A stretch of 64,000 nt of DNA from Candidatus Omnitrophota bacterium (GCA_050250375.1 JBFWOS010000001.1:27346-91345), one strand, 5' to 3'. Counted from the stretch's first letter, positions 33,134 to 52,225 are shown. Numbers and translations are program-made. Notes: generated by a model not told the origin, from the sequence alone.

Positions 33134-34198
33134 TCACTTATTAATATTTTTGATTCTTTCTTTACCAGAAGTGAGGTTATTTAACACTTCAAAAAAATAA
33201 GTCTTACCGACTCCTTTCGAATAGGAGGAAGAGTGAAATCTTACTGGAGTTGTAAAGATAAGCTGCGTTTCTGGGTGACTTCTCCAAAAAAGATAGGATG
33301 CAAAAGCTTGCATTTTACTGCATTGTGGAGCTATCGCAACGTCATATTGGTACTTTATAACATTAAACTCTTCCTCAAGTTTCGAGAGAATTTCCTCAAA
33401 AAACAGTGTCGAAACTTCAACTTCACGGATATGCCATCGAGAAAGTAACTCAGCATGAATCGATTTTGAGAACTCTGTTCTCCATTGTAAGTTTTTGTGA
33501 GGAGATCTTCCCCAAATGGCAATTAATGTACTTGGAGCATACTGATTTATGAGTCCTTCTATTCTATGGGGCTCATAGCCAACAAAAATAACCAAACAGG
33601 TCTGAGATCCAGGCCTAAAATTCCCACCGAACTCGGGCAATATTTGGACTTCCTTTAGGCCTGCACTTTGAAGATAATCAGTCGCCAAATCAAATCTTTT
33701 TTTAACCAATTCCTTTTCTATTTTCTCAATATCCACTTTCTTAGGAAAATAATCTTTTGCCTCTGTGCAAACGATTGATACTTTCATCCCAATGGATAAG
33801 CATGAGTGAATGGAATATATAGCCCACAAATGGGTCATGCCAGATATGTCTATTAAGACAGATTCGTACGCAAATTCTGTTCGAATTCGCTCGATTTCTG
33901 ATTTTATTTTGAAGCATGTTTGGATTGGGCTATTTGAATTTACTACTAACTCTTTAGGATCTTCTCCCTGGATAGATTTAATCAAGTGTTTAAGTTTCTT
34001 ATAGTTGGGTTCATTATCTTGTTTCTGGCTCTCGTAACGAAATAACAACCATCGACCGATCTTACATTTTGCCTTCTTTAGACTTGCCGTAAATTTTAAC
34101 GCACGCTCTTCAAAACCTGCAGCACAGATGACTAGGTCTTCTGTTAGAGGCTTTTTATAATTAAATTGTAATGCCGTTATTTTGATGTCGTTCATCAT
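33134..34198 (-). CDS. hypothetical protein (last gene of RM-associated module)
   Basis: 354 aa, AT-rich. Start overlaps the stop of the upstream 951-aa gene by 4 nt. No domain recognised. Confidence 0.5.
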   Translation of the reverse strand: MMNDIKITALQFNYKKPLTEDLVICAAGFEERALKFTASLKKAKCKIGRWLLFRYESQKQDNEPNYKKLKHLIKSIQGEDPKELVVNSNSPIQTCFKIKSEIERIRTEFAYESVLIDISGMTHLWAIYSIHSCLSIGMKVSIVCTEAKDYFPKKVDIEKIEKELVKKRFDLATDYLQSAGLKEVQILPEFGGNFRPGSQTCLVIFVGYEPHRIEGLINQYAPSTLIAIWGRSPHKNLQWRTEFSKSIHAELLSRWHIREVEVSTLFFEEILSKLEEEFNVIKYQYDVAIAPQCSKMQAFASYLFWRSHPETQLIFTTPVRFHSSSYSKGVGKTYFFEVLNNLTSGKERIKNINK

Positions 34199-37050
34199 TT
34201 TTCCGGAAATAATGTGCCTTGCTGTGAGGCTACCTTCCCCTCAGCTAAATCTCGCAATTTTCTTCGATGTCGTTCAATAAACTTGGTAGGCTTTAGCAAA
34301 AGCTCTTCCAATCGATCCGTGCTTAGATATATATGATTTCTTACTCTATAAGTAATACCAAATGCAGGCGCGAATATCTTATTTAGGTCATATCGTCTTG
34401 ATAAGCCTATCTGAGCACGTGAAAATGTTACTCCCTCGTCTAACACTAATCCCCACTGAATTAACCCATCTAGAATTAATTTGGCTTCAGCGCTCAATGA
34501 ATCACCATCTAATCTTTCAAATGAAATGGTTTCATACCACCTATTTTCTTCCTCTGTCTTATATTCCACAAGATATCGTCTTGATAACTCACCTATCGAA
34601 CTTATAACTGAGAATAATGCATTACCCAAAGACGTATTGTCAACCTCACCCGGAATATTGGATAAAGCTTTGAATAGTGTCTTGGCATGAGTTCTCACGA
34701 CTACATCTTGATCTCTTAAAGAAACTTTTCCAGAACCGGGTTGTACGCTATTATGACTGAAAATTTGTTCGACCAACTCTAATAAAGTTCTTATGCTCCC
34801 ATGGGATATGCTTGAAATTATATTCCATCCGGCATAATAGGCTTTTCCCCGTGGAGGGCGTTTCTTTGTGGACTCTCCTTTTTTAGGTCTCCTAGCTCCT
34901 GGCTGACTTAACCCTCTCAGGAATTCTTCTGAGGATTGAGATTCCCCCAATATATTCACTATGCTTTCGTTAAAACCTGCCGACTTAAGCCTTGTATCAA
35001 TAACTCTGGCCATATACTTCGATAAATTCTTTGAAGTGTCTCGTTGAGTTTTTGTGGAGACTTCACCCAAATCAACATATGTTGCCTCATGCCTTGGATC
35101 AATGGCACGACCATCTGATGAATCTATCGTATACATGTATTTATCATATGTGATTTTAAAGCAGTGATTTTCTTGAACTGATCGTACTAATGAGTTTAGG
35201 ATTTTCTGCATTTCAAAATGCATATTACCTTGACTTGCATCATCAACCAAAATGAAAAACCTAGTACTTCGCAACTCGCCAAACAGCTGTTTTATTACAA
35301 AGAAAAAGGAATCCAAGTCTCTTTCATCAAAAAAATGACTAATTTTCCTTTCTCCAATCCTATACCAGTTAGCTATTATTGAACTCTCTTGCGCCACACA
35401 AACTGCAAGGATCTGATGAAATATGTTAATGGGATTTTCTGGGTCGACTAAAATTAATTTACCCAATCTTTCCTCAAGAAACTTAATTAAGAGTTGATAA
35501 TCATTAGGAATTTGAATTATGGGCCGCTTACTTACCGGATCGACACATTCTAAACCTTTCTTAATTTCCTCAAATGTTTTATTCCAAATCTTTAAAACTA
35601 AAATATGTTTCAATATTCTTTGAGTCTCTGGATCAAATATATCTTGACCAATGGCCTGTGGCGTAAACACCTTAAATTCTCCAAGTCTGCAAGTGAATAG
35701 AACACCAAATGAGTTCTGAAAATTATATCGAATTTGTTCAAGTCGTTCTCTAAGTTCTAGATCATCTTGGGATTGAATTATAACCTGTGGATTAAAAGCT
35801 AGTACTCTCAAATAATGAGATTTACCACAACCCCTAGGTCCGGAAATCAATGTATTTCCGAAGCGGGAAATGACATCAAACCTGGCTGCATCAGGCTCAA
35901 AAAGCTTATATAACTTACCTGCTGTAGGTATCCATTCTACACGTAACCATTCAAACGGCTTTTCAACTGGAACTTTAAAAAAATTTTCAGGCACTGAAGC
36001 TTCGGGCTGATTAAAAACACGCATTATTTCCTGGAATGAACTAAATTTATTCTCCATTAAATTCTGAAGGATGGAATACACCTTCTCACCCAATATATAT
36101 CTTGCGGGGTTTCCAGGACACTTCTCACATGCCAACAAGGCTACTTTTAGTAAATGATTTCTAAAATTCTCTAAGTCAGACTTGACTTCAAGTTGTGGCG
36201 ATGAAGAAGAAGGAATTCCAATAAAATCAATCAGCCAAAATTCTATATTTGACATCTCTACAGTTGAAACGCTTGTGAAATCAACCAAAATATTACGTTC
36301 GTGCAAATCTCCGTGTATTAATCCAGCTTTTTCAATCTCAGCCATAGCTCCACCGATTCTTTGTATAAATCGATCAAAAAATTTACTTGTTATATTCTCT
36401 TGAGATTTTAAAAATTCCAGAAATGTTTTTGCTGATACGGGAATATTTTCAAAAACCACACAATTCAGAACCACTTCTTTTCCCTCGGGCAACTCAATAT
36501 TCAATTCTCCCATTTCTATTACTTCGGGCAATGCTGGATGCTTTAATTTTGAGCGCATTACTAGAGCTCTTCTTAATTTCTCCCAAGAAACAGTTCCCGG
36601 CAAAAAAATCTTGAGAGTTCGGTCTCTGTCTAGCATTGTTTCTTTTGCTAGAAATGTATATGATGAGTTGCCTTTCCCAAGAAGGCTTTTAACCTCATAA
36701 CTATGTTTAAGTGGTTCACTAACTTTTTTGTCATCTGTTTTTACTGTTTTGCCAATAAGGAAATCTAAGGAAAATAGTTCAATAGTAAAATATTTATCGA
36801 TCCAATCGGCCAACTTAAACCCTTTATCTGTTCTAGTGATAATTCTATGCTTATCTAATAAATCTAACTCTGAGTCCAGTTGATCCCTACTTATTTCCAA
36901 ATTCTGCGCAATCTTACTTTCATTTTCATTCGGGAATTGATGCAAGTACAATAAAATTAAACGCTTAAAAGGATCACTCATCAAGGTAATTATATTCCCT
37001 TGACGCTCAGTACGTTTATTTGGTTCTTTCAAAATAATCCCAGAACTCAT
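34195..37050 (-). CDS. wHTH - protein-kinase-like - P-loop NTPase fusion protein (951 aa)
   Basis: N-terminal winged HTH. Glycine loop LLGKGNSSYTFLA, lysine in TLKIF, catalytic loop LIHGDLHERNILVD and WLIDF (Kdo/RIO/APH-like kinase fold). Then Walker A ISGPRGCGKSHYLRV and Walker B FILVDDASQ. Confidence 0.65.
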   Translation of the reverse strand: MSSGIILKEPNKRTERQGNIITLMSDPFKRLILLYLHQFPNENESKIAQNLEISRDQLDSELDLLDKHRIITRTDKGFKLADWIDKYFTIELFSLDFLIGKTVKTDDKKVSEPLKHSYEVKSLLGKGNSSYTFLAKETMLDRDRTLKIFLPGTVSWEKLRRALVMRSKLKHPALPEVIEMGELNIELPEGKEVVLNCVVFENIPVSAKTFLEFLKSQENITSKFFDRFIQRIGGAMAEIEKAGLIHGDLHERNILVDFTSVSTVEMSNIEFWLIDFIGIPSSSSPQLEVKSDLENFRNHLLKVALLACEKCPGNPARYILGEKVYSILQNLMENKFSSFQEIMRVFNQPEASVPENFFKVPVEKPFEWLRVEWIPTAGKLYKLFEPDAARFDVISRFGNTLISGPRGCGKSHYLRVLAFNPQVIIQSQDDLELRERLEQIRYNFQNSFGVLFTCRLGEFKVFTPQAIGQDIFDPETQRILKHILVLKIWNKTFEEIKKGLECVDPVSKRPIIQIPNDYQLLIKFLEERLGKLILVDPENPINIFHQILAVCVAQESSIIANWYRIGERKISHFFDERDLDSFFFVIKQLFGELRSTRFFILVDDASQGNMHFEMQKILNSLVRSVQENHCFKITYDKYMYTIDSSDGRAIDPRHEATYVDLGEVSTKTQRDTSKNLSKYMARVIDTRLKSAGFNESIVNILGESQSSEEFLRGLSQPGARRPKKGESTKKRPPRGKAYYAGWNIISSISHGSIRTLLELVEQIFSHNSVQPGSGKVSLRDQDVVVRTHAKTLFKALSNIPGEVDNTSLGNALFSVISSIGELSRRYLVEYKTEEENRWYETISFERLDGDSLSAEAKLILDGLIQWGLVLDEGVTFSRAQIGLSRRYDLNKIFAPAFGITYRVRNHIYLSTDRLEELLLKPTKFIERHRRKLRDLAEGKVASQQGTLFPEK

Positions 37051-37589
37051 TTTCCTCCTAATAATTCCATCTGTTTACAAGCAGCGACTCGTTTAACCTG
37101 ATCAATAATTCGAGTTGACAAATGACATTCAATAATATCTCGCTCTCCATCAAACCAATCTAATTTACCATTTAGCCCTTCGAAAATTTGTAGAATACCT
37201 TGCGCGCTATAACCATTTCTATGATTCTGATCAACACAAATCATCATCTTCACTGCAAATTTTCTATTTCCCGCAAAATCATGAGCCTCTCCAATAGCAC
37301 CAGGACTTACCATTAAATTTATGATATAATCATACTCCTCTATCAAAATTTCTTCGGCCACTTTTACATTCAACCCTCTTAAATTCATATCCTCTTTATT
37401 GATTATTTCTTCTGGAAAATCTGCATCATGATTTAACTCTTTAAGCTTCATCCTTATTTCACAACGCTTCGCATATAAGTCCCCTCCACTGATACCTGGA
37501 CCAAAAATTAATATTTTTAGCTTACAGCCATCATGAATTCTACTGGCTGCCGCACGCAATCTTTTTAGATGTTTGTTAGTCATAACCAA
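37047..37589 (-). CDS. hypothetical protein, possible flavodoxin-like NDT/SLOG-fold enzyme
   Basis: KILIFGP...DYIINLMVSPGAIGEAHDFAG loosely resembles the NDT-superfamily xGTxxExG nucleophile motif. Weak assignment. Confidence 0.35.
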   Translation of the reverse strand: MVMTNKHLKRLRAAASRIHDGCKLKILIFGPGISGGDLYAKRCEIRMKLKELNHDADFPEEIINKEDMNLRGLNVKVAEEILIEEYDYIINLMVSPGAIGEAHDFAGNRKFAVKMMICVDQNHRNGYSAQGILQIFEGLNGKLDWFDGERDIIECHLSTRIIDQVKRVAACKQMELLGGK

Positions 37590-37605
37590 AATATCACCAA
37601 GCTTT

Positions 37606-38754
37606 TCACTTAGGCCTCATTAATAAAATAAGTTCGCAGGATTCCTTTCTGGAATCTCTTTTGGTGTTATTTCCACCCAGCGTGCTAAACCTCATCTTTA
37701 CTTTTTCCTTCTCTTGAATATCAAAAAATTGCATTGCTGTGTTTTTAACTTCTTCTCCTGATAAACCGTTGCTGCATTCCTCATTAGGAAAAGTAAATAT
37801 AACTGTAGCCCCGGACTCAGCAAGGTTACTTAAGAGATCAATTAACGCCTGTTTTGATTGTCCTTTATTGCTAAAGCTTGATTGAGGTCTTTTGGATATA
37901 TCAGGGTAGCGCCCCACACCGGAAACCTTTCCACACTCTTTATTGGCAATGGTTTCCAGGACATGATAAAAGCGGCTGTATTGAACTCCGGAATAAGGCG
38001 GGTCCACAAAGACAAGATCGGTGGGTCTCAATTTCTTGGCCTCGTCAATAGCATTTGCCACGCGAGCCTCGCCAATAGTCCTTGCATGCAACTTTGATAC
38101 TTCCGACAATGTTCTTTTGCACACATCAACCGGGTCTTTTTGCCAGGATTCCAACAAAAATTTCTTGGCCGTTCTGGTGGGTTGGAACGGCTGTGCCGTG
38201 TGTCCGGGAGAAGCCGCGCACCGACTAGCAGCCATGATGACGGCAGCTAAGCTCACCTTTTGATGAGTCAATTCTTGCGGAACATATTTTAATAAATAGT
38301 CAAAGGTCAGCGCTTGCTGCGGGCTGTAATAATGCCCTCCATAGGCATTCCAGATGGGGCCAATTGTTGACCGCTCTTCACAGAGTTCACGACAATCTTT
38401 AACATATTGACCCATCCTGCGCTTATCAAGCTTTGCGCTAAGCTTTTCAGCGGATATCCATAACTTCGATTCCCGCCTTAAATCGTCCACCCGATTAAGC
38501 CAATTTTCAGTAAGCTCCGATTCTTCAATAACCCTATTTCTTCCAATAATTGATTCCGTCAGGATAACGGAGTATTTCTGCAAATCTATTGCAAGCACCG
38601 GTAAGTCGGTGTGTCGAGCCACATGACACGCAACAGCCCCTGCCCCGCAAAAAAGATCCACAATCCGTTTAGCGGATTTGGCTTCTTCATCAAGCAACTT
38701 TCCCAAACCATTGGTGAGCATATACCGTTTTGAGCCCATGTATTTCATATACAA
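37606..38754 (-). CDS. Dam-family DNA N6-adenine methyltransferase with C-terminal extension
   Basis: YMGSKR at the N-terminus, DLFCGAGAV SAM motif, and DPPY catalytic motif. 382 aa versus about 280 for canonical Dam. Confidence 0.8.
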   Translation of the reverse strand: MYMKYMGSKRYMLTNGLGKLLDEEAKSAKRIVDLFCGAGAVACHVARHTDLPVLAIDLQKYSVILTESIIGRNRVIEESELTENWLNRVDDLRRESKLWISAEKLSAKLDKRRMGQYVKDCRELCEERSTIGPIWNAYGGHYYSPQQALTFDYLLKYVPQELTHQKVSLAAVIMAASRCAASPGHTAQPFQPTRTAKKFLLESWQKDPVDVCKRTLSEVSKLHARTIGEARVANAIDEAKKLRPTDLVFVDPPYSGVQYSRFYHVLETIANKECGKVSGVGRYPDISKRPQSSFSNKGQSKQALIDLLSNLAESGATVIFTFPNEECSNGLSGEEVKNTAMQFFDIQEKEKVKMRFSTLGGNNTKRDSRKESCELILLMRPK

Positions 38755-40031
38755 ATTCCTGTTAAGCCAATACGTTCACAACCGGAAAGTATCAAGAGTT
38801 CCTTTGATAATTTGGTACGCAACTCAAATACATTGTTAATCAAAGATGCATCTTGGTTAACATTATTTATAGTATCGTTAACTTCACTCCACATATCTAA
38901 CAAAGGATCGGTACTTGTATTTTCCCAAAGACCTCGATCTATACCCAATGGTTCCCACCAAAATTCTAAATCTTTTTTAGTTGTAGCTGTACATTCCATC
39001 AAGCGAGAGACTGACCCCGTAGATAACCTTAAGAGCAACATCGCTCGACATAACATTTGTATATGATATTTTTCGTCAGTGTAAGTTCCATTTTTTCTTG
39101 CTTCTATTAAAAGACGCGATCCAGGCAGTTTATTAGTTGGCCCCGATAATAAAGTACTTAACCTCTGTGATTCATTCTTAGAAATCCCCAAATTCTGCAT
39201 GACTTTAATTAATTGCTTTTTTGGAATACTGCTTTTTGAGCCATGTAGAGATCTAAAATATTTTTGCAGGGCTCCCCTAAACAACAAAAAATCTATAACA
39301 AAACTATTATTTTTTGAAGGGGTAAATGAATTCCACATTTCTGTAATTAAATTAAGCACTTCCTTAATATTTAAAGAGTTATATGGGGTTAAGTCAGAAG
39401 GTCTATAGCTAGCCTCATTTCTTACAGTTCTATCTTTTTCTAATATTTTCAAATCATGAATCCAATTTTTCAGCCAATCTTCAGCAAGCCATCCAATTGG
39501 AGAGCTATACCCTCCCGTTAATTCAGTAAACCAATCTTTAAGACAAATTCCTTCAGGTCTAATTATTTCCTCAATTAAATGGATAGCATTTGGTGATTTG
39601 GCCCAAACTTCAAATGCTTCTACTACTGCGACATGTGTTCCCTTTCCCGAAATTTTATGAATTCTTGAACTATCGATAGTAAAATGAATTTTATCAAATA
39701 TTCCAATTCCCTCTGCTGCCAAGAGCGACATAACCGCCCTTAACTCTGCATAATAGGCAAAATGTTTAGTCCGACTCCTGTCGCCCAATGAATAAGATAT
39801 TAGTGCTTTCCCCAGAAAATCCCACCCATCTAAACAATGCAAAGGTGTGGAGGCAGCTATATATTTTTTTATATCCCGCCTAATGTTTCCGGCCTTACAG
39901 TCTATTGAAATTTTTTTTATACAATTCTTTCTGTATCGATTATTAAAAATCCATCTATTAAGCTTGAAATCCTTTTTTAGAAGTTCAAAATTTTTCTCAG
40001 ATTCTATTCTTGAAAATGCAGAATATGGCAT
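38745..40031 (-). CDS. hypothetical protein
   Basis: 428 aa, AT-rich, translationally coupled to its neighbours. No domain recognised. Confidence 0.5.
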   Translation of the reverse strand: MPYSAFSRIESEKNFELLKKDFKLNRWIFNNRYRKNCIKKISIDCKAGNIRRDIKKYIAASTPLHCLDGWDFLGKALISYSLGDRSRTKHFAYYAELRAVMSLLAAEGIGIFDKIHFTIDSSRIHKISGKGTHVAVVEAFEVWAKSPNAIHLIEEIIRPEGICLKDWFTELTGGYSSPIGWLAEDWLKNWIHDLKILEKDRTVRNEASYRPSDLTPYNSLNIKEVLNLITEMWNSFTPSKNNSFVIDFLLFRGALQKYFRSLHGSKSSIPKKQLIKVMQNLGISKNESQRLSTLLSGPTNKLPGSRLLIEARKNGTYTDEKYHIQMLCRAMLLLRLSTGSVSRLMECTATTKKDLEFWWEPLGIDRGLWENTSTDPLLDMWSEVNDTINNVNQDASLINNVFELRTKLSKELLILSGCERIGLTGICI

Positions 40032-40039
40032 AGTATTTT

Positions 40040-41545
40040 TTACCTATTAAAACCTAAATGTTCAAAAACATTTTTGGCAACCGTTCCCAATTCTGTTTTT
40101 TCAACCATCAAATGTCTCAAAAGTTGACGACGAAACTCTCTATAACCACTTCCTCCTCGAAAAGCTAATTTTCGCAATCTTTCATTTTCCTCTAAATTAG
40201 GAGCACCTGATGATCTCCAATCAAACTTTGAGAGGGACTGAGTTAAATTATCAATAAAATCTATAATTTTCTTTTTACGTTTTAGATCTTTAATGGCTTC
40301 GTTTACTGAAATTTCGGCATCTGGGACATCTGATAATTTCCATGATTTAAGGTTGAGACTTACTGCTTTTTCGAAGAAAATGTCGTTGGTCACATTCAAC
40401 ACAACTGAAACACCTTGATCATTATTGAGCAATGAATGTGGCCCATCAAATGCTGGGTCATTATTCTTTTGCTTTTTATATTTAATACCCCTTAAATCTT
40501 TTGCCCATCCCGAGTTATTGTCTTCAACAAAATATTTTATTCTGTTCCAAAGATATATCAGGAAGGCCGCTTGTTGTGTCCTTGTCCAGGGGATAATGAT
40601 CTTGTGTTCCCCGACTCTTGCGCCATAAAGACCCCCTATTGAAACACCTTTACCTTCGTATGACTTTATATAACTTTTGAGCAAAGCTCTAATCCAAGCA
40701 GCTTGGGTAACAGCCCCAGCGCCACCCTCCCCTAACATATTTATTCGATGATACCAAACACTTTCCTGTTCGTACCATAATGACTCAGTAATTTCCTGCG
40801 CTCTTGCCTCTCTATATACTTTGTGCCCCTCAAATCTATCAAGCCAATCTTCCGTTCGCAACAATGGATAAAGGTCATAGGCTAAACTTGGATTAATCCT
40901 CTTTGGTTTTATATTAATCGTCCAAAATAAATATGCCTGCCAACTAATATCTAACTCATGAAAAGCCACAACAGGAAGCTGATAGTTTTCATCATCCAAC
41001 TTGTCATCAAAGGCCAATAACCGATGTTGTCCATCTATTATTTCTATTGGATGTTTCTTCTTTGGCTTCCAGTTTTTCCCTTTAAAACTTCTAGGCAATA
41101 TAACTTCAATGTCTGTTGAATTCTCTTCAATTTCAATTAAATCATTCTTGTCAACAGCCATATCGTTTCTTTCATCAGCCTTCCCTAAAATATTTACAAC
41201 TATCGCTGTAGGAAGCCACCCTGGTTTTCTCAAATTATTAAAAACTTCTTCTTTCCTTTTCGAACCTGATAATTCTGACCATGGATATCCATATTTAATG
41301 TACTCACGTATATTTGCTGAACGAGATGGCTCATGTTGTCTTTGTATATGTTTATCACTGGTTCTTGAAATTCCAGATTTAATTCCGCGTCTATATACAC
41401 CTGATAATAGTTTTAACTTCTTAGCGGAAAGAGAAAAAACATAAAAGAACTCTTTTGGCTTCTTTCTTAAGTTTTCTTTCTTAAATTCGATACCTTTCCA
41501 TTCATTCAACCACTGATGGATTTTCAATGCCTTTATTTTTTCCAT
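40040..41545 (-). CDS. DGQHR-domain protein (DndB/DpdB-like, ParB/Srx superfamily)
   Basis: IIDGQHRLLAF motif. 501 aa. Confidence 0.75.
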   Translation of the reverse strand: MEKIKALKIHQWLNEWKGIEFKKENLRKKPKEFFYVFSLSAKKLKLLSGVYRRGIKSGISRTSDKHIQRQHEPSRSANIREYIKYGYPWSELSGSKRKEEVFNNLRKPGWLPTAIVVNILGKADERNDMAVDKNDLIEIEENSTDIEVILPRSFKGKNWKPKKKHPIEIIDGQHRLLAFDDKLDDENYQLPVVAFHELDISWQAYLFWTINIKPKRINPSLAYDLYPLLRTEDWLDRFEGHKVYREARAQEITESLWYEQESVWYHRINMLGEGGAGAVTQAAWIRALLKSYIKSYEGKGVSIGGLYGARVGEHKIIIPWTRTQQAAFLIYLWNRIKYFVEDNNSGWAKDLRGIKYKKQKNNDPAFDGPHSLLNNDQGVSVVLNVTNDIFFEKAVSLNLKSWKLSDVPDAEISVNEAIKDLKRKKKIIDFIDNLTQSLSKFDWRSSGAPNLEENERLRKLAFRGGSGYREFRRQLLRHLMVEKTELGTVAKNVFEHLGFNR

Positions 41546-41579
41546 AGTTTTCCCCTATATTTGTTATTCTACGGATTAT

Positions 41580-43103
41580 TTATGTTCTCTCAAACGCCTC
41601 CCGCAACACCGCTCGCATCAGCATTTCGGAGTGGTCTTTGCGTTCGGCGACTTGTTTATCAAGCTCACCGACCATGATCGTAAACTTATCCACCAGGTTG
41701 ACGATAACTTGTTGTTCAATCACAGAAGGGACAGGAACTACAAACTGTTCAAGATTGTATTTAGGAAGACCTTCCCGTCCAGCACCTGTAGTAGATTCGA
41801 ACATCACCTTTTGGAATTGCGGTGATAAAACTATTTTGTGCATAAATCCTTTAGACATTAAAATACTTCGAATAATACAAACGTGTTGACTTACATTTCC
41901 TTCTCTGAAATCTACTGGAATTAATGCACACCGCCCAAGAGATCCGCCAGTAATATTTAACAGTAAATCGCCAGCAATGACAGCTGTTCCTTTCATCTGT
42001 TTATGTACTTCGGAGGATATAAATTTTATATCGTCACAATCTAAGCCATCGTCATGAATATTCTGAGACCTAAAAAATAAAATTCCTTTTGTTGAGTAAT
42101 TACTCCCTTTCGGAGTACTTCCTGAACCAATCTTCGAACAAAGATCACCCAACCGACACCATTCCCACCCCTCCGGCAACTCAAAGGGTTTTTCTTCATT
42201 GGTTATTGGTGATAATGGTTTTTCTTTTTTAATTTTCCCTTCCTTAATCAGTCGTTCTTTCTCTGCCTTAATTCTCTCAAGCAACTTTGAGGCATGGTTT
42301 TCGCCGCTGATGAGTTTAGGATTTTCTTTGCGCCATTGGGCTGTCAATTTACCTTCAATGGCTTCCTGCAAAACAGATTGACGAAGATTGTAAAGCAAAG
42401 CTTCTTGAGTCTCGACTTCATCTTTAAATAACTGTCGTAAACAATTTATATTCTTAACTCTATTGAATTTCAATTTCGCTGTATGAAGGATTTCACTCCT
42501 TGAAAGCTCTCCTGTATTCTTATAATGTACAATCTTATTTTGCACGTCCACAGAACAGGCAGGAAACATTAGCTGTTTCATTTTCTCCGCATTTACATTT
42601 GGTTGCGCTGTCCCATTTTTCATTTCAAGAATTTGATTCCAAAAAAGATACGAATTCAAAAAAAGATAAATATATTCGGGATTAAAGCTGGCATTAACTG
42701 TCAACCGAATCAAGTAACTTGCGAACACGCAATTTGTTGGAATATTTTTGATAAATACTGTTTTACCAGTTGTACCACCTGTTCGCGTTATTAAAATATC
42801 CTCTTCATTTAATGAATACTTTTTTAGCTCTTTACAGTCACAAAAAGGTACAGACGGCCAATCTATTACGCCCTCAGTAATGTCGGTAATACGGAGCAAC
42901 TTGCTATTCCCATCAAGCTTTGCAGATGTAGTATAACCATACTGGGTCTTAGTTAGAGCATCCCCCAAAGGAATAAAATTCTTGTAAGTATCAGCAATGA
43001 TTTTCATTAATACCGTGTTATGTAGCTGCCTTAACTCTTCTTCGTTAGATTTAATAAATGTAAGTTTGCGATAGCCATACTCAGGAACAAAAGAATTAAC
43101 CAT
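41580..43103 (-). CDS. hsdS: Type I restriction-modification specificity subunit
   Basis: Two target-recognition domains separated by a conserved central coiled-coil (ELPEGWEW...). Conserved C-terminal region. Confidence 0.85.
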   Translation of the reverse strand: MVNSFVPEYGYRKLTFIKSNEEELRQLHNTVLMKIIADTYKNFIPLGDALTKTQYGYTTSAKLDGNSKLLRITDITEGVIDWPSVPFCDCKELKKYSLNEEDILITRTGGTTGKTVFIKNIPTNCVFASYLIRLTVNASFNPEYIYLFLNSYLFWNQILEMKNGTAQPNVNAEKMKQLMFPACSVDVQNKIVHYKNTGELSRSEILHTAKLKFNRVKNINCLRQLFKDEVETQEALLYNLRQSVLQEAIEGKLTAQWRKENPKLISGENHASKLLERIKAEKERLIKEGKIKKEKPLSPITNEEKPFELPEGWEWCRLGDLCSKIGSGSTPKGSNYSTKGILFFRSQNIHDDGLDCDDIKFISSEVHKQMKGTAVIAGDLLLNITGGSLGRCALIPVDFREGNVSQHVCIIRSILMSKGFMHKIVLSPQFQKVMFESTTGAGREGLPKYNLEQFVVPVPSVIEQQVIVNLVDKFTIMVGELDKQVAERKDHSEMLMRAVLREAFERT

Positions 43104-44529
43104 TCTGAACTGCTTCCTTAAGTTTCTTTAAAAGTTCTTCACTCTTGCAAAACGAATCATGAAGCGTGGCGACCAGCTCTGCGCTTGAATAGACGTGTTC
43201 CGCTTCAGGCATGTGTGGATTTTTAATGTCGAGGTTATACCCATTAGTTGCTATCGTTTCGATCGAAACTTTCCAGACCTGTTCGCTTTTTTTACGTTTC
43301 TTCCACCATTTCTTTAGACCATCGAATTCACTTTTCTGTATCGGTTTAGTCTTATTATAAGCCTTTACCCCTTCCGGCAATTTGTGTTCCCAATACCAAA
43401 CCTCTTTTGTAGGCTTGCCTTTGTCGAAGAATAGAAGATTTGTCGCAACGCTCGCATAAGGTTGAAAAACCGAATTAGGCAGACGCACTATCGTATGTAA
43501 ATTGCAATTCTCCAATAGATGTTGACGTATCCGTTGCTTAACTCCGTCTCCCGTCAGCGATCCGTCCGGTAGTACAATACCTGCGCGCCCCCCGTCTTTG
43601 AGATAACGGATCATCAACATTAAGAAAAGATCGGCACTTTCTGCGGTGCGGAAATTCTGCGGAAAATTGGTTTCGACTCCATCCGTAACCGAAGCACCAA
43701 AAGGAGGATTGGCAAGGATGACATCAACCCGGTCTTTTTGTCCGATGGATGTATATTCGCGATTAAGGCTATCAGTATAATCAATATTGGGGACTTCAAT
43801 GTCATGGAGGATAAGATTAGTGACGGCCAACATAAAAGGAAGCGGCTTAAATTCCATTCCGTGAATCGTTTTTTCAAGTTCCTTCAGGTCATCAACGCCC
43901 TTAACATCCTGCGTGCGAATATTCTCGATTGCACTCGTTAAGAAACCGCCGGTGCCGCAGGCGGGATCCAAAACTTTCTCACCTAACCTTGGATTTACCA
44001 TTTCCGTAATAAATTCGGTCAGAGCGCGCGGGGTGTAGAATTCCCCGTAATTGCCGGCGTTTTGAAGATCGCGCAGGATGGTCTCATAAATATCGCCAAA
44101 AACGTGACGGTCCTCGGCTTTGTTAAAGTCAATCTGGTTTAACGCGTTAATCACCTGGCGGAGGATGGTGCCGTTTTTCATATAGTTGTTTGTGCCGTCA
44201 AATATTTCACGGACAATAAGCGCGCGTTTATTGCCGGTGCTCACGTCTAAATTCTTTAGTTGAGGAATTAGTTTGCCATCAATAAAACTTTTCAGCTCAT
44301 CCCCCGTCATCCCCTCATCATCAGCGGCCCAATTACGCCATTGTAATTCCTTGGGGATCACCGAAACATATTTATTATTGATTAACTCCATTTCCTGATC
44401 TTTATCATCCAAAACCTTGAGGCTGATCATCCAGCCCAATTGTTCGATGCGCTGGGCGTCTCCAGACACGCCGGGGTCTCTGCGCATAATGTTTTGTAAA
44501 CTTTTAATGATACCGCCAAGATTCTTCAT
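43096..44529 (-). CDS. hsdM: Type I restriction-modification DNA methyltransferase subunit
   Basis: HsdM N-domain, DPACGTGGFL SAM motif and NPPFG catalytic motif. Confidence 0.9.
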   Translation of the reverse strand: MKNLGGIIKSLQNIMRRDPGVSGDAQRIEQLGWMISLKVLDDKDQEMELINNKYVSVIPKELQWRNWAADDEGMTGDELKSFIDGKLIPQLKNLDVSTGNKRALIVREIFDGTNNYMKNGTILRQVINALNQIDFNKAEDRHVFGDIYETILRDLQNAGNYGEFYTPRALTEFITEMVNPRLGEKVLDPACGTGGFLTSAIENIRTQDVKGVDDLKELEKTIHGMEFKPLPFMLAVTNLILHDIEVPNIDYTDSLNREYTSIGQKDRVDVILANPPFGASVTDGVETNFPQNFRTAESADLFLMLMIRYLKDGGRAGIVLPDGSLTGDGVKQRIRQHLLENCNLHTIVRLPNSVFQPYASVATNLLFFDKGKPTKEVWYWEHKLPEGVKAYNKTKPIQKSEFDGLKKWWKKRKKSEQVWKVSIETIATNGYNLDIKNPHMPEAEHVYSSAELVATLHDSFCKSEELLKKLKEAVQNG

Positions 44530-44538
44530 TAACTCTCC

Positions 44539-46944
44539 TTACGCAACGGCATAAAGCTCATGCTCCAACTCTTTGATGGCCAGGATGTATTGATCACGGC
44601 CGCCAAAGGATTGAATAATTTCCGTTGGTGTTCCCATTTGATTAAACGGCTCGATTTTTAAGACTGAAAGGTCTTCAATATTCTCAATGCCTTCATCCGC
44701 ATATTTATCCAACAGGGCGTTGAGAACGGCACGCGCTTTGTTGCCGTATTTGGTGAAATAATTGCGTTTTTTAACTCCTTCGGCTCTTTCTTTGCGTGTG
44801 AGAGCCGGCATATCCCAGGCGATATGACAAATCAGATCAAAAATATCTAAATCTTTCTTTGTTTCCTCCAACAAATTCTCCAGAATAATGCCTTTCGATT
44901 CTAGTTCTTCGACAATCGCTTGTTTTTTATGAGTGCTATTCCACCTGGCGAGAAATTCGTTCAAGGTGTGAAACTCTTTTATAATACTTCTTTTCGTATA
45001 GTCAATTAAGGTCTCGGTCATCAGTTTGCCGTTGGCATCCAAATGCTGGACACGTTCATTCAAAATGGACACATCCACGCCAGCGACAAAGATTTTTGGA
45101 CTCGGATCAGATGTTATTGGTCCCCCCCCCACAATTTCAGGCGGAGGATCATAGATGGTAGTTCCATCTCCTTCAAAATCAACAGGCTCATCGGTTTCAG
45201 GATCGATGACTTCCTGATCATCTAAAGGATCAATAACTACATCTGTTATCTCCTCATCTCCATTAATTTCTTTGATCATGACCGGATCTCCGTCAAACTT
45301 AGAGTCGGCAAAAAGATTGGTGACACTGCGAAAATCCATAATCGTAAAATATGTTTTATCGTATACTTCGTTAATACGCGTTCCGCGGCCGATAATCTGT
45401 TTGAACTCGGTCATGGATTGAATATTTGACTCAAGAACAATCAATTTGCAGGTTTGCGCGTCAACACCGGTGGTCATCAATTTTGAAGTGGTGGCAATGA
45501 CAGGATAAGTTTCTTCGGGATTAATAAAATTATCCACTTCGCGCTTACCTTCGTCATTATCGCCGGTTATACGCATGACATATTTATAGTTCTCCAAAAC
45601 CAAATCTGAATTTTCAATGGCCAGGGCTTGTCGCATCCGTTCGGCATGTTCGATATCTACACAAAAAACAATGGTTTTGTCAAAACGATTTGTCTTTCTT
45701 AAAAACTCAGTTATCTTCTTGGCCACTATTTTTGTCCGATCATCAATAACCAAATTTTTGTCAAAATCTTTAGTGTTATAGACCCGGTCTTCGACCTCGT
45801 TACCGTCTTTGTCTTTCTTGCCTAATTCCGGGCGCCAGCCTTCCAGATCGGTATTGATTCCGACTCGGATAACCTTGTAAGGCGCCAGAAACCCGTCCGC
45901 GATACCCTGCTTGAGCGTGTAGGTGTAAACAGGTTCACCAAAATAATCAATATTAGAAATTGTCTTTGTTTCCCGCGGGGTTGCAGTAAGTCCGATATGT
46001 GTAGCGGATTTAAAATAATTAAGAATCGCTTTCCACGCGTTGTCAGACGCCGCGCTTCCGCGATGGCACTCATCAACAACCACTAAATCAAAAAAATCAG
46101 GACGGAATTGTCTATACGCGTCCTTATCCTCATTATCATTTGTCAGTCCTTGATAAAGGGCTAAATAAATTTCGTAGGCTTTGTCAATCTGGTGTTTTTT
46201 GATAACAGTCATTTTTTCTTTAAAATGCTTAAAATCATTGCGCTTGGTTTGATCAATCAGAATGTTACGATCCGCCAGAAAAAGTATTCGCTTTTTCCTG
46301 CCGTTTTTCCAAAGCCGGTAGATGATTTGAAACGCCGTGTAGGTTTTTCCTGTGCCGGTGGCCATGACAAGGAGCACTCTATTCTGCCCGCGGGCGATGG
46401 CTTCAACAGTTCGATTAATCGCGATTTGCTGATAGTAGCGCGGGGAACGTCCTGAACCATCGTAAAAATAGTCGAATGAAGCGGCTTGTTCCTCCTCGGG
46501 AGTTTCAATATTTTTAAACTTTTTGTATATTTGCCATAATTCAGCGGGGGAAGGAAAATTGTCCAGGGAGTATTCTTTTTCGATCGGCATCGTGAGTCCG
46601 GAAAAATCATGCTGGATAAAGCCGTCGCCGTTAGAACTAAAGGCGAGCGGAACATCCAATATCTTTGCGTATCTTAAGGCTTGTTGTAACCCGGAACCTA
46701 CTGAATGGTTGTTATCTTTTGCTTCAATGACAGCGATGGGAATATTGGGTTTAAGATAGAGAATAATGTCGGCACGTTTTCGTTCGCCACGGACCGATTT
46801 TTTACCCTTAACAAAGATACGGCCGTCAGTAAAATACACTTCCTCACGAATCTGTTTTGATAAGTCCCAACCCGCTTTAAGTATGGCCGGCAAAATGAAT
46901 TGGGTGCAGATATCGCGTTCCGAGAGTTCTTTTTTGTTGGTCAT
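44539..46944 (-). CDS. hsdR: Type I restriction enzyme R subunit (EcoEI-like C-terminus)
   Basis: MTNKKELSERDICTQFILPAI N-terminal nuclease domain, TGTGKT and DECHR helicase motifs, and an EcoEI_R_C-like C-terminal domain. Confidence 0.9.
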   Translation of the reverse strand: MTNKKELSERDICTQFILPAILKAGWDLSKQIREEVYFTDGRIFVKGKKSVRGERKRADIILYLKPNIPIAVIEAKDNNHSVGSGLQQALRYAKILDVPLAFSSNGDGFIQHDFSGLTMPIEKEYSLDNFPSPAELWQIYKKFKNIETPEEEQAASFDYFYDGSGRSPRYYQQIAINRTVEAIARGQNRVLLVMATGTGKTYTAFQIIYRLWKNGRKKRILFLADRNILIDQTKRNDFKHFKEKMTVIKKHQIDKAYEIYLALYQGLTNDNEDKDAYRQFRPDFFDLVVVDECHRGSAASDNAWKAILNYFKSATHIGLTATPRETKTISNIDYFGEPVYTYTLKQGIADGFLAPYKVIRVGINTDLEGWRPELGKKDKDGNEVEDRVYNTKDFDKNLVIDDRTKIVAKKITEFLRKTNRFDKTIVFCVDIEHAERMRQALAIENSDLVLENYKYVMRITGDNDEGKREVDNFINPEETYPVIATTSKLMTTGVDAQTCKLIVLESNIQSMTEFKQIIGRGTRINEVYDKTYFTIMDFRSVTNLFADSKFDGDPVMIKEINGDEEITDVVIDPLDDQEVIDPETDEPVDFEGDGTTIYDPPPEIVGGGPITSDPSPKIFVAGVDVSILNERVQHLDANGKLMTETLIDYTKRSIIKEFHTLNEFLARWNSTHKKQAIVEELESKGIILENLLEETKKDLDIFDLICHIAWDMPALTRKERAEGVKKRNYFTKYGNKARAVLNALLDKYADEGIENIEDLSVLKIEPFNQMGTPTEIIQSFGGRDQYILAIKELEHELYAVA

Positions 46945-47175: not shown

Positions 47176-47616
47176 TCATCGGTCAACCTTTTCTTCGTCT
47201 CCAGGACACGCCGCAAACTCGCAATCCGGCGGGATTCTTCCTACGTAACTGCCGTCGGCGCATTGTTTGGCGTCCATTGTGCACGCATGCGTGCTCTTGG
47301 TGTTATGAGCAGGAGTGCAGCTGGATATAAATAAAGAAAGAAGAAGGAAGAAGAAAGAGGGGAGAAATTTATTGACCGTTGGGCTATTGGGTATATGGGT
47401 AAATGGGTATATGTGTTTATGCGGGGTTATGACTGTTGGGCGGATAAAGTCACACGTCACAAAGTCACATGTCACATGTGACTTGTGTCCTGTGACGTGT
47501 GACATTGCTTGACCACCGGTCACTGGTCCCTGATCCCTATTTTTTCCGCAAATTTTCATACAGAACCTTTCCTTCACGGTCAAAGATCGTGTCGCTGAGG
47601 ATCGCATTGTTTTCAT
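47176..47616 (-). CDS. hypothetical; Cys-rich C-terminal peptide preceded by repeat-C-encoded lipoprotein-signal-like segment
   Basis: The ORF spans repeat C. The repeat encodes ...NKFLPSFFFLLLSLFISSC (lipobox-like), followed by TPAHNTKSTHACTMDAKQCADGSYVGRIPPDCEFAACPGDEEKVDR. The true start is unclear. Confidence 0.3.
   Translation of the reverse strand: MKTMRSSATRSLTVKERFCMKICGKNRDQGPVTGGQAMSHVTGHKSHVTCDFVTCDFIRPTVITPHKHIYPFTHIPNSPTVNKFLPSFFFLLLSLFISSCTPAHNTKSTHACTMDAKQCADGSYVGRIPPDCEFAACPGDEEKVDR
47331..47506. repeat. repeat family C, copy 1 (open in one frame)
   Basis: Purine-rich tract, TTGACCGTTGGGCTATTGGGT..., then the perfect palindromes GTCACATGTGAC and GTGACGTGTGAC. The second copy is at 48160-48316. 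Confidence 0.8.
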
Positions 47617-49111
47617 AGACCACTTCGGCCATGAGATACCCGTCAGGATGGTAGATCCTGTTCGGTCCGTCCGGGAGGCCTTCCCGGGATGATATCGTCT
47701 CCATGAGCCGGCCGTCTTTATAATAATATGTGAGGGTCCCGGTCACGGGCTGGCCGGATTCATCAACCAGCCGGTTGTTTTTATAATGCATGACATGCGA
47801 CAGTTCCCCATCCGGGAAATACTCTTTGTAATCACCATCAAGCTGATAATTACGCGACGATCCGGAGGTCTTGATCACCCCGTTGGGATAATAAAGCGTA
47901 AACACGGACTCATTGCCGCCGATCGCCTGCGACAGGAAGGCGACTTTCCCGTCAGGATAATAACGGATGTGCCTGATTTGCTGGCGCTGGTTATATTTGA
48001 TTTCCTGCATCACTTCCCCGTTTTTGAAGTAATTACGCGCCACTGCTGTGCCGTCGTTTTCCTGGGTCATATCTGAAAGAAGATTACCGGAGTCGTCATT
48101 CACCCGGGAGTATGAAGCGGGGACGGCGGCATAGAGCAAAGGAGAAAAACTGGTTATCAATAAAGAAAGAAGGAAGATAAAAGAAGGAAGAAATTTATTG
48201 CCCGTTGGGCTATTGGGTTTATGGGTAGATGGGTATATGTGTTTATGGGGGGTTATGACTGTTGGGCGGATAAAGTCACATGTCACATGTGACTTGTGTC
48301 CTGTGACGTGTGACATTATCCATTCCTTCATCTTCATGAGCCTGCCGTTGGTGGCCTGCAGTTCGGCAAAATCCAGATACAGTGAAACGATAAGATTGAG
48401 CTGTTTTAATTCCGGTTCGGACAAATAGTTCTTGGCGATGACGGCATCCTGCGCGGTAACATAATTATTTTTTAAGCTGGTCAGCCCCATTAGAGGCTTA
48501 CGGCTGTCCGCGCGTTTCTCGATGATCTCGGCCGCGGTGTGGCCGTGAACGGCATAATGCATCTTATTTTGCACAGTGGCGAAGAATTCCTGGGTCAGTT
48601 TGTCGTTAACCTTGTAATCAATGCTGGTGGCGTAAATATCGGTCACTTTCTGGTAAAAATTGCGCTCACTGCTGCGGATGTCACGGATACGTTGTAGAAG
48701 TTCTTCAAAATAACGCGCCCGGCCTCCGCCTGCCTTAAGCCGTTCATCATCCAGCGTAAAGCCTTTAACGATATATTCCCTGAGCCGTTGGGTGGCCCAA
48801 ATGCGAAATTGCGTGCCCTGCAATGATTTCACACGGTACCCGACAGAGATAATGACATCCAGATTGTAATAATTGGTCGGTTTGGTAGAAAATTCGGAAT
48901 TTCCGAATTTTCTCATCGTTAGTTCCTCAGATAATTCTTTCTCTTGGTAGATATTCTGAATATGTTCATTAATCGTAGATTTTGATTTATCAAAGAGTTC
49001 CGCCATCTGGTCTTGAGACAACCAGACTGTTTCATCTTCAATCTTAACCCGTAGTTTTGTCTGCCCATCGTCAGTTTTGTAAATAATAATCTGCGGTTCC
49101 GGTTTTTTCAT
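47537..49111 (-). CDS. composite ORF: RhuM-family N-terminal region joined in-frame through repeat C to a MORN-repeat (YwqK-like) lipoprotein region
   Basis: Residues 1 to about 257 match RhuM/DinD-family proteins (IIIYKTDDGQTKLRVKIEDETVWLSQDQMAELF...). The repeat-C-encoded segment follows (HVTGHKSHVTCDF...NKFLPSFIFLLSLLITSF). Then MORN-like repeats (YYPDG..., YYKDGRL...). Likely a fusion created by the repeat insertion, or two genes. Confidence 0.5.
   Translation of the reverse strand: MKKPEPQIIIYKTDDGQTKLRVKIEDETVWLSQDQMAELFDKSKSTINEHIQNIYQEKELSEELTMRKFGNSEFSTKPTNYYNLDVIISVGYRVKSLQGTQFRIWATQRLREYIVKGFTLDDERLKAGGGRARYFEELLQRIRDIRSSERNFYQKVTDIYATSIDYKVNDKLTQEFFATVQNKMHYAVHGHTAAEIIEKRADSRKPLMGLTSLKNNYVTAQDAVIAKNYLSEPELKQLNLIVSLYLDFAELQATNGRLMKMKEWIMSHVTGHKSHVTCDFIRPTVITPHKHIYPSTHKPNSPTGNKFLPSFIFLLSLLITSFSPLLYAAVPASYSRVNDDSGNLLSDMTQENDGTAVARNYFKNGEVMQEIKYNQRQQIRHIRYYPDGKVAFLSQAIGGNESVFTLYYPNGVIKTSGSSRNYQLDGDYKEYFPDGELSHVMHYKNNRLVDESGQPVTGTLTYYYKDGRLMETISSREGLPDGPNRIYHPDGYLMAEVVYENNAILSDTIFDREGKVLYENLRKK
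48160..48316. repeat. repeat family C, copy 2
   Basis: See 47331-47506. Confidence 0.8.
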
Positions 49112-49736: not shown

Positions 49737-50236
49737 GTCCGTCTCTTCCTTAATACAATGTTGTTTTTAATGCATTTTGGTCAGGGGGATTTTCTTCATT
49801 GATTTTACCCGGCGCATGGATTGTTTAGGTCAATAGGATATAGGGAACAGGCATCTCGGCCCGCAGCATTCGCTGCGAAGCGGCGAGACGGGCGCCTGTT
49901 CCGTACGAAATTGATATTGATATTAATTTTGTATTGTTTTTTGTTCGTTTTGATAAATTATTATACACAAAATTTTTCGCATTTCATCAGCAAAATGAGG
50001 GTTGGCACTATCCTTTCCGGGCTTTGTGCTATCTTTTTTCTACCTTTTGGGCGGATTGGGAGGATTTTAAGGGATCAGGGGTCAGGGATTAGGGATAATC
50101 TTGACCGTTGGGCTTATGCTGTTATTAGTTATTAGTGGTGAGTGATCTGTGATCAGTCGTTTGACCGTTGGGTTAATGCTGTTATCCAATCCAGGGATCT
50201 GATCACCCGTTTGCTGACCATCAATTACCCGAGTTG

Positions 50237-50632
50237 TTAGTCTGACTTATTTATCAATGACTTTAGGATTTGCGCAAACCCCTCTTTATCAAGATTTCCT
50301 GTAGCCAGTTTCATCATTCCATCGTACAATTTCTGATCCTGGTCAAGAATTTCAATGCCGTTTAATTCAAGAAATACCAGAGCAGCTGCCAGCCCTGTTC
50401 TTTTATTCCCATCGATAAAAGGCTGATTCTGGGAAATATGAAACGCATAGGCGGCAGCCTTCATGCTTAGATCGCCATGGAGGTAATCCCCCTGAAATGT
50501 TGCCTGCGGTTGTGACAACGCCGATTGAAGCATTTCCATATCTCTGAGTCCGGGTTTGCCGCCATATAAATCGAGTTGGTTTTGATGGATTTCAATGATT
50601 TCGGCGAGGGTCAGAAAAATAAATTCATTCAT
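50237..50632 (-). CDS. doc: Doc (death-on-curing) family toxin, Fic fold
   Basis: FIDGNKRTG matches the Doc variant of the Fic motif. Confidence 0.85.
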   Translation of the reverse strand: MNEFIFLTLAEIIEIHQNQLDLYGGKPGLRDMEMLQSALSQPQATFQGDYLHGDLSMKAAAYAFHISQNQPFIDGNKRTGLAAALVFLELNGIEILDQDQKLYDGMMKLATGNLDKEGFAQILKSLINKSD

Positions 50633-50950: not shown

Positions 50951-51134
50951 AGAAGAAAGATGAAAGATGAAAGAAAAGTTATAAAAGTTTAAGGTTTGAC
51001 GTTTAAGGTTAAGGAACTAACAAGACACAAGTGACAAACAAATTCCATTGTTCAACATTCAATAACCAAACAGGATTATTTTTTGTTTGGATTTTGTTGT
51101 TTGTGATTTTTTTGTACCTTGTCTCTTGTTTCTT
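50951..51134. repeat. repeat family D, copy 1
   Basis: Purine-rich tract, AAAGTTTAAGGTT(TGACGTTTAAGGTT), then CAAATTCCATTGTTCAACATTCAATAACCAAACAGGATTATTTTTTGTTTGGATTTTGTTGTTTGTGATTTTTTTGTACCTTGTCTCTTGTTTCTT. Second copy at 52290-52460. Both lie upstream of TA-like operons. Confidence 0.8.
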
Positions 51135-51852: not shown

Positions 51853-52225
51853 GCAATGCTCCCTGAAGATATTTAATCTGTTTTTTCACTTGTGATAAAT
51901 GACTTCGGTATTTTGCCCGCAATTTCTTAGCATCGTCATACCTTTTGATTTCATCTTTTGGCAGTTTACCTTGATAGATGTGTTTTACTTTCTGACCGAT
52001 CCTTTTGACCAGATAATAATATTCGTTATTTTTGATGATCTTTTTGGATAAGCACCCTTCAGGCAGTTTCTTAAGGGCAGACTCATACTCTTTTTTCATA
52101 CGCAAAGAATTTTTCAACTCTTCCTTTAAAACCCCTTTTATAACACCTCTCATAACAGCCTCCTGGTTACCTAACAAACTATACTTAAATATAACTTGTT
52201 TGGTAACCCCTGTCAACTTTTTCAT
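51833..52225 (-). CDS. hypothetical Lys-rich small protein, putative cognate partner of the NTase
   Basis: 130 aa, overlaps the NTase start by 20 nt. No domain recognised. Confidence 0.35.
   Translation of the reverse strand: MKKLTGVTKQVIFKYSLLGNQEAVMRGVIKGVLKEELKNSLRMKKEYESALKKLPEGCLSKKIIKNNEYYYLVKRIGQKVKHIYQGKLPKDEIKRYDDAKKLRAKYRSHLSQVKKQIKYLQGALRGKEAI

Follow-up and report, generated by a model that had tools for sequence, protein, structure and literature searches.

A three-gene cassette of a DGQHR-domain protein, a partner of no known family and an adenine methyltransferase, conserved across bacterial phyla

Domains of the ParB/DUF262 type act as nucleoside triphosphate (NTP)-dependent sensors of DNA modification in SspE and GmrSD, and a ParB/Srx core followed by C-terminal helices is the arrangement described for DndB, SspE, GmrSD and NsnA (PMC12065111). 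A DndB-like protein binds ATP and GTP (bioRxiv 10.1101/2025.10.10.680097), and nicking of DNA by some ParB/Srx proteins is cited in PMC12839542. Discrimination of self from non-self by DNA methylation is also known. In this paper we describe a cassette of three genes in a 64,000-nucleotide stretch of the genome of Candidatus Omnitrophota bacterium (GCA_050250375.1 JBFWOS010000001.1:27346-91345), here called the window, in which a DGQHR-domain protein and a partner of no known family, X, are encoded with an adenine methyltransferase, and whose non-methyltransferase components are unprecedented. No paper describing the cassette was found in a full-text literature search, and neither the DGQHR protein nor X has a model in PADLOC 2.0. 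The sole trace in the literature is in a paper that notes in passing, for Mycobacterium abscessus, a DGQHR gene next to a methyltransferase of the DpnIIA type (PMC9248903).

The genes of the cassette overlap or are nearly contiguous (Table 1). The gene for X lies between the other two and its stop codon overlaps the start of the methyltransferase gene (ATGA), the true start of which is probably the ATG at 38748, giving a protein of 380 residues. An earlier reading of this DNA made from the sequence alone (the sequence-only reading) had noticed the DGQHR and methyltransferase genes and placed them two genes apart; there is really one gene between them, X, which it did not mention.

A scan of 185,579 species genomes, one per species, gave relatives of the DGQHR protein in at least 361, and 82 loci were examined, namely the best 80 and two plasmid loci. 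A homologue of X lies directly downstream of the DGQHR gene and in the same orientation in 79 of the 82, the other three ending at a contig edge, and an adenine methyltransferase adjoins the pair in 71 of the 76 loci that could be evaluated for it. This third gene is an enzyme of the long type, as in the window, downstream of the pair in 57 loci, a canonical Dam-type enzyme downstream in 10 or immediately upstream in three, and an MT-A70 enzyme in one. When the DGQHR proteins are placed on a neighbour-joining tree, loci with canonical Dam are dispersed among those with the long type. The methyltransferase has therefore been replaced on several occasions beside an unchanging DGQHR-X pair, as would be expected if the pair were tolerated only together with methylation. 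Cassettes occur in Patescibacteria, Chloroflexota, Acidobacteriota, Planctomycetota, Pseudomonadota, Actinomycetota and other phyla, and their flanks are variable, with 152 families among 123 flanking open reading frames (ORFs) that include type I and other restriction genes, integrase, conjugation, DarT/DarG-like, Tn7-like and housekeeping genes. GenBank phage records (50,697) gave no match, and 2.9 million viral contigs gave nine. The DGQHR protein, X and the methyltransferase are one conserved three-gene cassette, and this cassette is self-contained and horizontally mobile.

The association was also examined from the side of the methyltransferase. A profile of the long enzyme, run against metagenomes, gave 80 loci, of which 73 had enough upstream sequence, and in 72 of these 73 the relative stands beside a partner gene of the DGQHR cassette: 42 follow a homologue of X, 29 follow a second variant of the cassette described below and one follows a 1227-residue protein containing a DGQHR segment; the 73rd locus was left unassigned. 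The linkage to a methyltransferase that characterizes the restriction-modification class is found in both directions. The sequence-only reading had suspected a tie between the DGQHR gene and the nearby adenine methyltransferase, and synteny at more than 150 loci strongly supports it. It had also allowed that the enzyme might be an orphan housekeeping Dam that occurs in related genomes without the DGQHR gene; the long methyltransferase is not such an orphan, since nearly all of its relatives sit beside DGQHR-cassette genes.

Three parts make up the DGQHR protein: an N-terminal region, a core like ParB/Srx and, at residues 322-496, a helical C-terminal domain with about eight helices. The AlphaFold2 model of the protein has a predicted local distance difference test score (pLDDT) of 80. 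The motif itself stands in the segment IEIIDGQHRL (residues 167-176). The pair Q68-R69, the DGQHR at 171-175 and an FxxxN motif at 207-211 are invariant or nearly so among 24 homologues, and identity within the family alignment is 45-64% across phyla. The TIGR03187 score, the pentapeptide, the QR pair and FxxxN together place the protein in the DGQHR-domain superfamily. An identity as DndB was rejected (PF14072, 28.2 bits against a gathering score of 29.1; TIGR04172, 55.2 bits against 450; no Dnd model matched in the window), as was an identity as DpdB (NF041060, 26.5 bits against 300; no other Dpd gene in the window); the protein fails the thresholds for DndB, for dnd-associated DGQHR protein 1 and for DpdB alike. 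Among the matches listed, which cover 25 of the 27 families matching in the window, no Dnd, Dpd or Ssp model falls on any other ORF, the sole match of this kind being that of the PADLOC DpdB model to the DGQHR protein itself (expectation value, E, 8.8e-06). The sequence-only reading had correctly seen a DGQHR protein standing outside any dnd or dpd cluster.

X has no match in Pfam, NCBIfam or PADLOC. Its AlphaFold2 model is mostly alpha-helical with a pLDDT of 93, and Foldseek found no structural neighbour of it in PDB or BFVD; because the predicted structure is confident and has no PDB match, X is a candidate for a new effector or sensor fold. Identity among homologues is 21-49%, so that X evolves faster than the DGQHR protein, and the residues H65, W70, H90, Y93, Y94, R98, T132, H133, D193, D200, R204, S208, Y209 and R329 are invariant. 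The family is discrete (1231 clusters at 50% identity), and nearly all of its listed members are 420-475 residues long with no evident fusions.

The methyltransferase carries the motifs YMGSKR, DLFCGAG and DPPY (residues 251-254) and the subtype-specific segment ASPGHTAQPFQP; FCGAG and DPPY are kept in 22 homologues, and the ASPGHTAQPFQP segment is conserved in the alignment. The PF02086 score, the FxGxG motif for binding S-adenosylmethionine (SAM) and DPPY place it in the D12 class. The sequence-only reading was right that an adenine methyltransferase with DPPY is present, but its assignment to the Dam family does not hold: the enzyme scores 25 bits on TIGR00571 against a cut-off of 114.85, and the region before DPPY is unrelated to the NGLxRxN...FNVPxG loop of Dam and carries ASPGHTAQPFQP instead. 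Nor is there a C-terminal extension of about 100 residues, as had been thought. In a profile comparison residues 203-379 align with residues 143-270 of a canonical 270-residue Dam-type enzyme, end to end, and the roughly 110 extra residues are internal, lying before DPPY and in an insert after DPPY that contains SRFYHVLE. Against T4 Dam, the N-terminal motifs alone match the long profile. The canonical enzymes that replace the long type in other loci keep the NGLxRxN...FNVPxG loop, are close to DpnM, EcoDam and T4 Dam, and score 215-255 bits on TIGR00571 (nine tested). DpnM, EcoDam and T4 Dam are GATC enzymes.

Table 1. Features of the cassette and of its surroundings in the window (positions counted from the first nucleotide of the window).
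Feature	Length (residues)	Position	Strand	Match or remark
DGQHR-domain protein	501	40040-41545	minus	TIGR03187 70.7 bits (cut-off 58.85)
Partner X	428	38745-40031	minus	no known family
D12-class N6-adenine methyltransferase, long subtype	382	37606-38754	minus	PF02086 58.6 bits (gathering 22)
Small protein Y	180	37047-37589	minus	weakly like NDT/STM3845 retron effector; PADLOC NDT_II-A E 9.5e-07
Ser/Thr-kinase-like and ORC/Cdc6-like ATPase protein	951	34195-37050	minus	PF24389 E 8.4e-44; Pkinase below threshold
CARF-like protein	354	33134-34198	minus	PADLOC CARF6 models E 2.2e-25; last gene of module
Sigma-70-like promoter match, best of region		41566-41593	minus	TTGAGA-16-TAGAAT; inside last hsdS codons
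hsdS		41580-43103	minus	PADLOC Specificity_I 272.5 bits
hsdM		43096-44529	minus	PADLOC MTase_I 629.5 bits
hsdR		44539-46944	minus	PADLOC REase_I 1163.9 bits
RhuM-family protein	524	47537-49111	minus	C-terminal MORN-repeat matches; PADLOC candidate family PDC-S05

Several variants of the cassette were observed (locus labels are our own). In the second variant (L093-L163, for example L109:2953-6352) the same long methyltransferase subtype accompanies a different DGQHR protein of 450-500 residues and a 285-residue protein of no family; the DGQHR protein was detected in about 20 of the 29 loci, and two such proteins, scanned with TIGR03187, reached 75-78 bits. Homology between X and the 285-residue partner was rejected (hhalign not significant, probability 0.3%), and a Dxx[AH]RxxA[SN]Y motif with identical spacing, seen in both by eye, is a lead and not a result. 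The Patescibacteria-type relatives closest to the copy in the window have a fourth gene after the methyltransferase, for a DUF4357-containing protein of about 290 residues (L003:14082-14960, L005:13992-14867, L006:14064-14942 and L174:5667-6518); L025 differs, its fourth gene (9183-10046) being similar to the 285-residue partner of the second variant (E 1.8e-14). Two larger proteins adjoin long methyltransferases, a DGQHR protein of 783 residues at L160:4775-7126, with 140 bits against TIGR03187 and a weak Hjc-like (PD-(D/E)xK) match at the N-terminus, and the 1227-residue protein at L149:2321-6004, with its DGQHR segment at residues 813-968. These may be fusions that reveal a nuclease partner. 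A different arrangement of DGQHR and adenine methylation is found on plasmid pTR3_1 of Acinetobacter sp. TR3 (L083, 1084-5051), where the order is a BglII/BstYI-family restriction endonuclease, a helix-turn-helix controller, a 392-residue adenine methylase, a 207-residue hypothetical protein and a 383-residue DGQHR protein.

On balance we lean towards reading the cassette as a methylation-based and restriction-like defence cassette, or an addiction cassette. The mechanism that we infer would have the methyltransferase put N6-methyladenine (m6A) on the host's own DNA, while the DGQHR protein, as a predicted NTPase of the ParB/Srx fold, like those through which DNA modification is sensed in SspE, GmrSD and DndB, would join the fast-evolving helical X in recognizing DNA that lacks the mark and then blocking or damaging it; the defence role, the division of labour and the choice of the protein that would cut DNA all belong to this inferred scheme. 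The constancy of the DGQHR-X pair, the exchangeable and near-universal methyltransferase, the tight operon, the intact SAM-binding and DPPY motifs, the island-type context and the near-absence from phages argue for a restriction-like role. Other observations weigh against it. No nuclease domain was recognized in the DGQHR protein or X with Pfam, NCBIfam and PADLOC profiles or with Foldseek, and in Dnd and Dpd the DGQHR protein stands on the modification side and not on the restriction side (PMC10853773; PMC12839542). In five of the 76 evaluable loci no methyltransferase was seen nearby, and the pair therefore may not be lethal alone. The defence-island context does no more than suggest a defence role.

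Some of these same observations would fit a module for modification only. DpdB powers DpdA and DndB controls Dnd modification, and the DGQHR protein and X would similarly serve the methyltransferase, by loading, regulating or assisting it. The output of such a module might be an epigenetic mark for gene control or for protection of a mobile element, and any restriction partner would lie elsewhere, for example in the kinase/ORC module downstream. The place of the known DGQHR proteins in modification modules and the want of a detectable nuclease fold both agree with such a role, as does the position of a candidate effector module directly after the methyltransferase in the window, L174 and L175. 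Dam-type enzymes, however, are established to act alone, without helpers, and it is the methyltransferase that is the exchangeable part of the cassette and the DGQHR-X pair that is the constant one. Most cassettes, moreover, have no further conserved neighbour, as the variable flanks attest, and phages, in which modules for self-protective methylation are common (bioRxiv 10.1101/2025.10.10.680097), hardly ever carry the cassette. We consider a role in modification only to be unlikely.

The module downstream, which the sequence-only reading had missed, is headed in the window by the same methyltransferase and consists of the NDT-like protein Y, the kinase/ORC-like ATPase and the CARF-like protein. 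The gene for the ATPase overlaps each of its neighbours by 4 nucleotides. Its CARF-like neighbour follows it in every locus examined, and a homologue of Y lies upstream of it in all but the most distant locus, L182; identities with eight other contigs (L174-L181) are 41-53% for the module, and the Y homologues there, directly upstream of the ATPase gene, are 45-53% identical. Seven kinase loci were picked without regard to DGQHR. None of the seven has a DGQHR gene, four have their own canonical Dam-type enzyme directly upstream (237-249 bits on the canonical profile for the three with DNA available), two have none and one has an unassigned 274-residue gene. PADLOC has only a fused CARF_STK_AAA architecture, and the module thus looks like another uncharacterized candidate system associated with methylation.

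The six-gene order of the window recurs in L174, with a long methyltransferase and the extra DUF4357 gene, in L175/L176, with a canonical Dam-type enzyme, and probably in L151, where a homologue of Y comes after a second-variant cassette at the contig end. This recurrence, together with the tight packing and ATGA overlaps, would be in keeping with a single six-gene system (33134-41545) in which the DGQHR-X pair, the kinase/ORC-like ATPase and the CARF-like protein would act jointly, with the NDT-like protein as toxic effector and the methyltransferase as self mark. The genes for Y, the kinase/ORC-like ATPase and the CARF-like protein are, however, in none of the 82 cassette loci, just as DGQHR is in none of the seven kinase loci; a DUF4357 gene splits the two halves in L174, and each half is evidently viable alone, so a single six-gene system seems to us quite improbable. 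Two unrelated modules, each normally with a Dam-type enzyme, have been repeatedly joined around a single one. In the window the methyltransferase heads a second module, which in other places comes with a Dam-type enzyme of its own, and in the six-gene arrangement two different readers may therefore be served by one methyl mark. A fuller form of the restriction-like reading, in which the DGQHR-X pair would be a new methylation-reading restriction machinery of a ParB/Srx NTPase and a novel-fold effector, with Dam-type methylation as a self mark for at least two unrelated reader/effector modules, this pair and the trio of NDT-like, kinase/ORC-like ATPase and CARF-like proteins, which could share it through one methyltransferase gene, is offered tentatively, as a possibility that we hold at somewhat less than even.

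All of these genes lie in an island of low guanine-cytosine (GC) content, 35-44% across 33.1-53 kb of the window against 50-56% in the flanks, with almost all genes on the minus strand. The proteins are 100% identical to those of a Candidatus Omnitrophota metagenome-assembled genome, and no match was found in E. coli genomes. Transcription would run from the RhuM gene through hsdR, hsdM, hsdS, DGQHR, X (428 residues), the D12 methyltransferase, Y (180 residues) and the kinase/ORC-like ATPase to the CARF-like gene. Other genes of the island encode KilA-N, Bro-N, DUF1016-SNase, Fic, MNT-type nucleotidyltransferase and ORF6N proteins. The PDC-S05 models also match three more ORFs of the window, and the island is bracketed by RhuM/PDC-S05 ORFs together with the Bro-N, KilA-N and ORF6N genes. 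At its far end are a Fic/DOC-family protein and an NTP_transf_8 (MNT-type) nucleotidyltransferase with an overlapping 130-residue partner (50237-50632 and 51160-52225), which are probably toxin-antitoxin pairs.

The type I restriction-modification system at 41580-46944 (minus strand) is complete, and the DGQHR and methyltransferase genes are indeed downstream of hsdS on the strand of hsdR, hsdM and hsdS, as the sequence-only reading had it. The shared strand, a gap of 34 nucleotides from hsdS and the hsd genes that adjoin the cassette also in L004, L012, L048, L094 and L117 might point to an accessory that is lodged within the neighbouring type I system and needs it. That is very improbable: hsd genes are detectable near only five of the 82 loci, none accompanies the plasmid copies in Zymomonas and Rhizobium, and a promoter-like site is found close before the DGQHR start, 21 nucleotides from an ATG preceded by AGGGGA, although such sites are no more numerous in the region than in shuffled sequences and the evidence from the promoter is accordingly weak. 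The position after hsdS is real, then, but as a meaningful placement it does not stand; since hsd genes are so seldom near, it reflects the defence island, and the type I system is a neighbour of the cassette and not a component. It is hardly credible that the DGQHR gene is a stray dnd or dpd regulator or nickase beside an unrelated orphan or housekeeping Dam, for although the window has no dnd or dpd genes, the three-gene synteny is conserved across phyla, the DGQHR protein falls far below the DndB and DpdB thresholds, the methyltransferase subtype stands beside DGQHR-cassette genes in all but one evaluable locus, and the locus lies within the low-GC island.

The sequence-only reading had also remarked on an abundance of short repeats containing GATC in the intergenic regions. 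GATC is indeed enriched, with 426 sites in the window against 293 ± 16 in shuffled sequences (about 1.5-fold over), and repeats containing it exist; a link to the methyltransferase did not hold up. Host-type coding DNA is likewise enriched (6.4-9.3 sites per kb) and the low-GC island is near expectation (66 against 56), so the richness is a trait of the whole host. The host-type intergenic regions are packed with tandem repeats of heptamers (CTGATCA, GATCCCC, AGGGATC, ACCTTAA and TTCTTAC), for example at 3143-3169, 4171-4197, 9774-9806, 18742-18768 and 50070-50096, and intergenic blocks are duplicated whole, 47334-47503 resembling 48163-48314 and 51079-51115 resembling 52404-52440. The cyanobacterial HIP1 element was rejected as a source of the GATC sites, as GCGATCGC occurs twice against 1.33 expected and the repeats are heptamers.

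Should the cassette restrict unmethylated DNA, the methylation-based defences would gain a widespread system, present in at least 361 species genomes of many phyla, whose non-methyltransferase components match no known restriction enzyme. It would also mean that DGQHR/ParB-fold proteins work with ordinary adenine methylation and not just with phosphorothioate and 7-deazaguanine. A methyltransferase common to two modules offers a directly testable case of one mark with several readers. In cultured Bradyrhizobium, Rhizobium, Sinorhizobium and Zymomonas such cassettes may stand unnoticed in the way of DNA transfer; cultured carriers include Bradyrhizobium manausense BR 3351, Rhizobium tumorigenes (pRt932) and Zymomonas mobilis CP4. 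The methylome of Zymomonas ZM4 has three m6A motifs only (PMC8432527), and we draw no inference from it, the strain probably being without the 30,952-bp plasmid that carries the cassette.

Among described systems, the cassette resembles Dpd and Dnd in that a DGQHR-type ParB/Srx domain (QR, DGQHR and FxxxN) with a C-terminal helical domain is encoded alongside a DNA-modifying enzyme, as for DpdB and DndB. It differs in having neither dndCDE nor dpdA and in scores far below both thresholds; its modifier is a plain SAM-dependent adenine methyltransferase, and the obligatory X has no counterpart in Dnd or Dpd. With SspE, GmrSD/BrxU and the NsnA protein of Menshen (DUF262) it shares the layout of a ParB/Srx NTPase domain followed by a helical domain, which in those systems reads DNA modification in defence (PMC12065111). 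There, however, the motif is DGQQR or DGxQR, and a nuclease, HNH (DUF1524) or another, is fused or linked to the protein; the presumed trigger of the cassette is instead the absence of a methyl mark, and the PADLOC models for the SspE, GmrSD/BrxU and NsnA systems had no match on the cassette proteins.

The downstream module alone recalls MADS and BREX type 2/Pgl, in which a methyltransferase is encoded with a kinase-containing protein, and it has weak matches to MAD6 and PglW. Membership in MADS was rejected, with MAD6 at 37.5 bits against 460 and the mad2 and mad5 matches being canonical HsdM and HsdS, which score far higher on type I models; PglW, at 18.6 bits against 990, likewise sets the module apart from BREX type 2/Pgl. 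No other MADS or BREX genes were matched in the window, except for marginal cross-matches of HsdR to BrxHI/BrxHII. In the ParB-methyltransferase fusions of phages a ParB-fold domain is also functionally tied to a DNA methyltransferase (bioRxiv 10.1101/2025.10.10.680097), but these are single fused proteins, enriched in prophages, with domains of the N6_N4 type, whereas the cassette encodes three proteins, each by a gene of its own, its methyltransferase is of the D12 class, and phages almost never carry it.

To type II systems of the DpnII/MboI type the cassette is alike in being a compact operon with a D12 methyltransferase, some of its enzymes being closely related to DpnM and EcoDam, and in its mobility, its patchy distribution and the almost constant presence of the modification gene. 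No known restriction-endonuclease fold was recognized in it, however, and in place of one small endonuclease it has two genes, for proteins of about 500 and about 430 residues, one of them an NTPase-type ParB/Srx protein.

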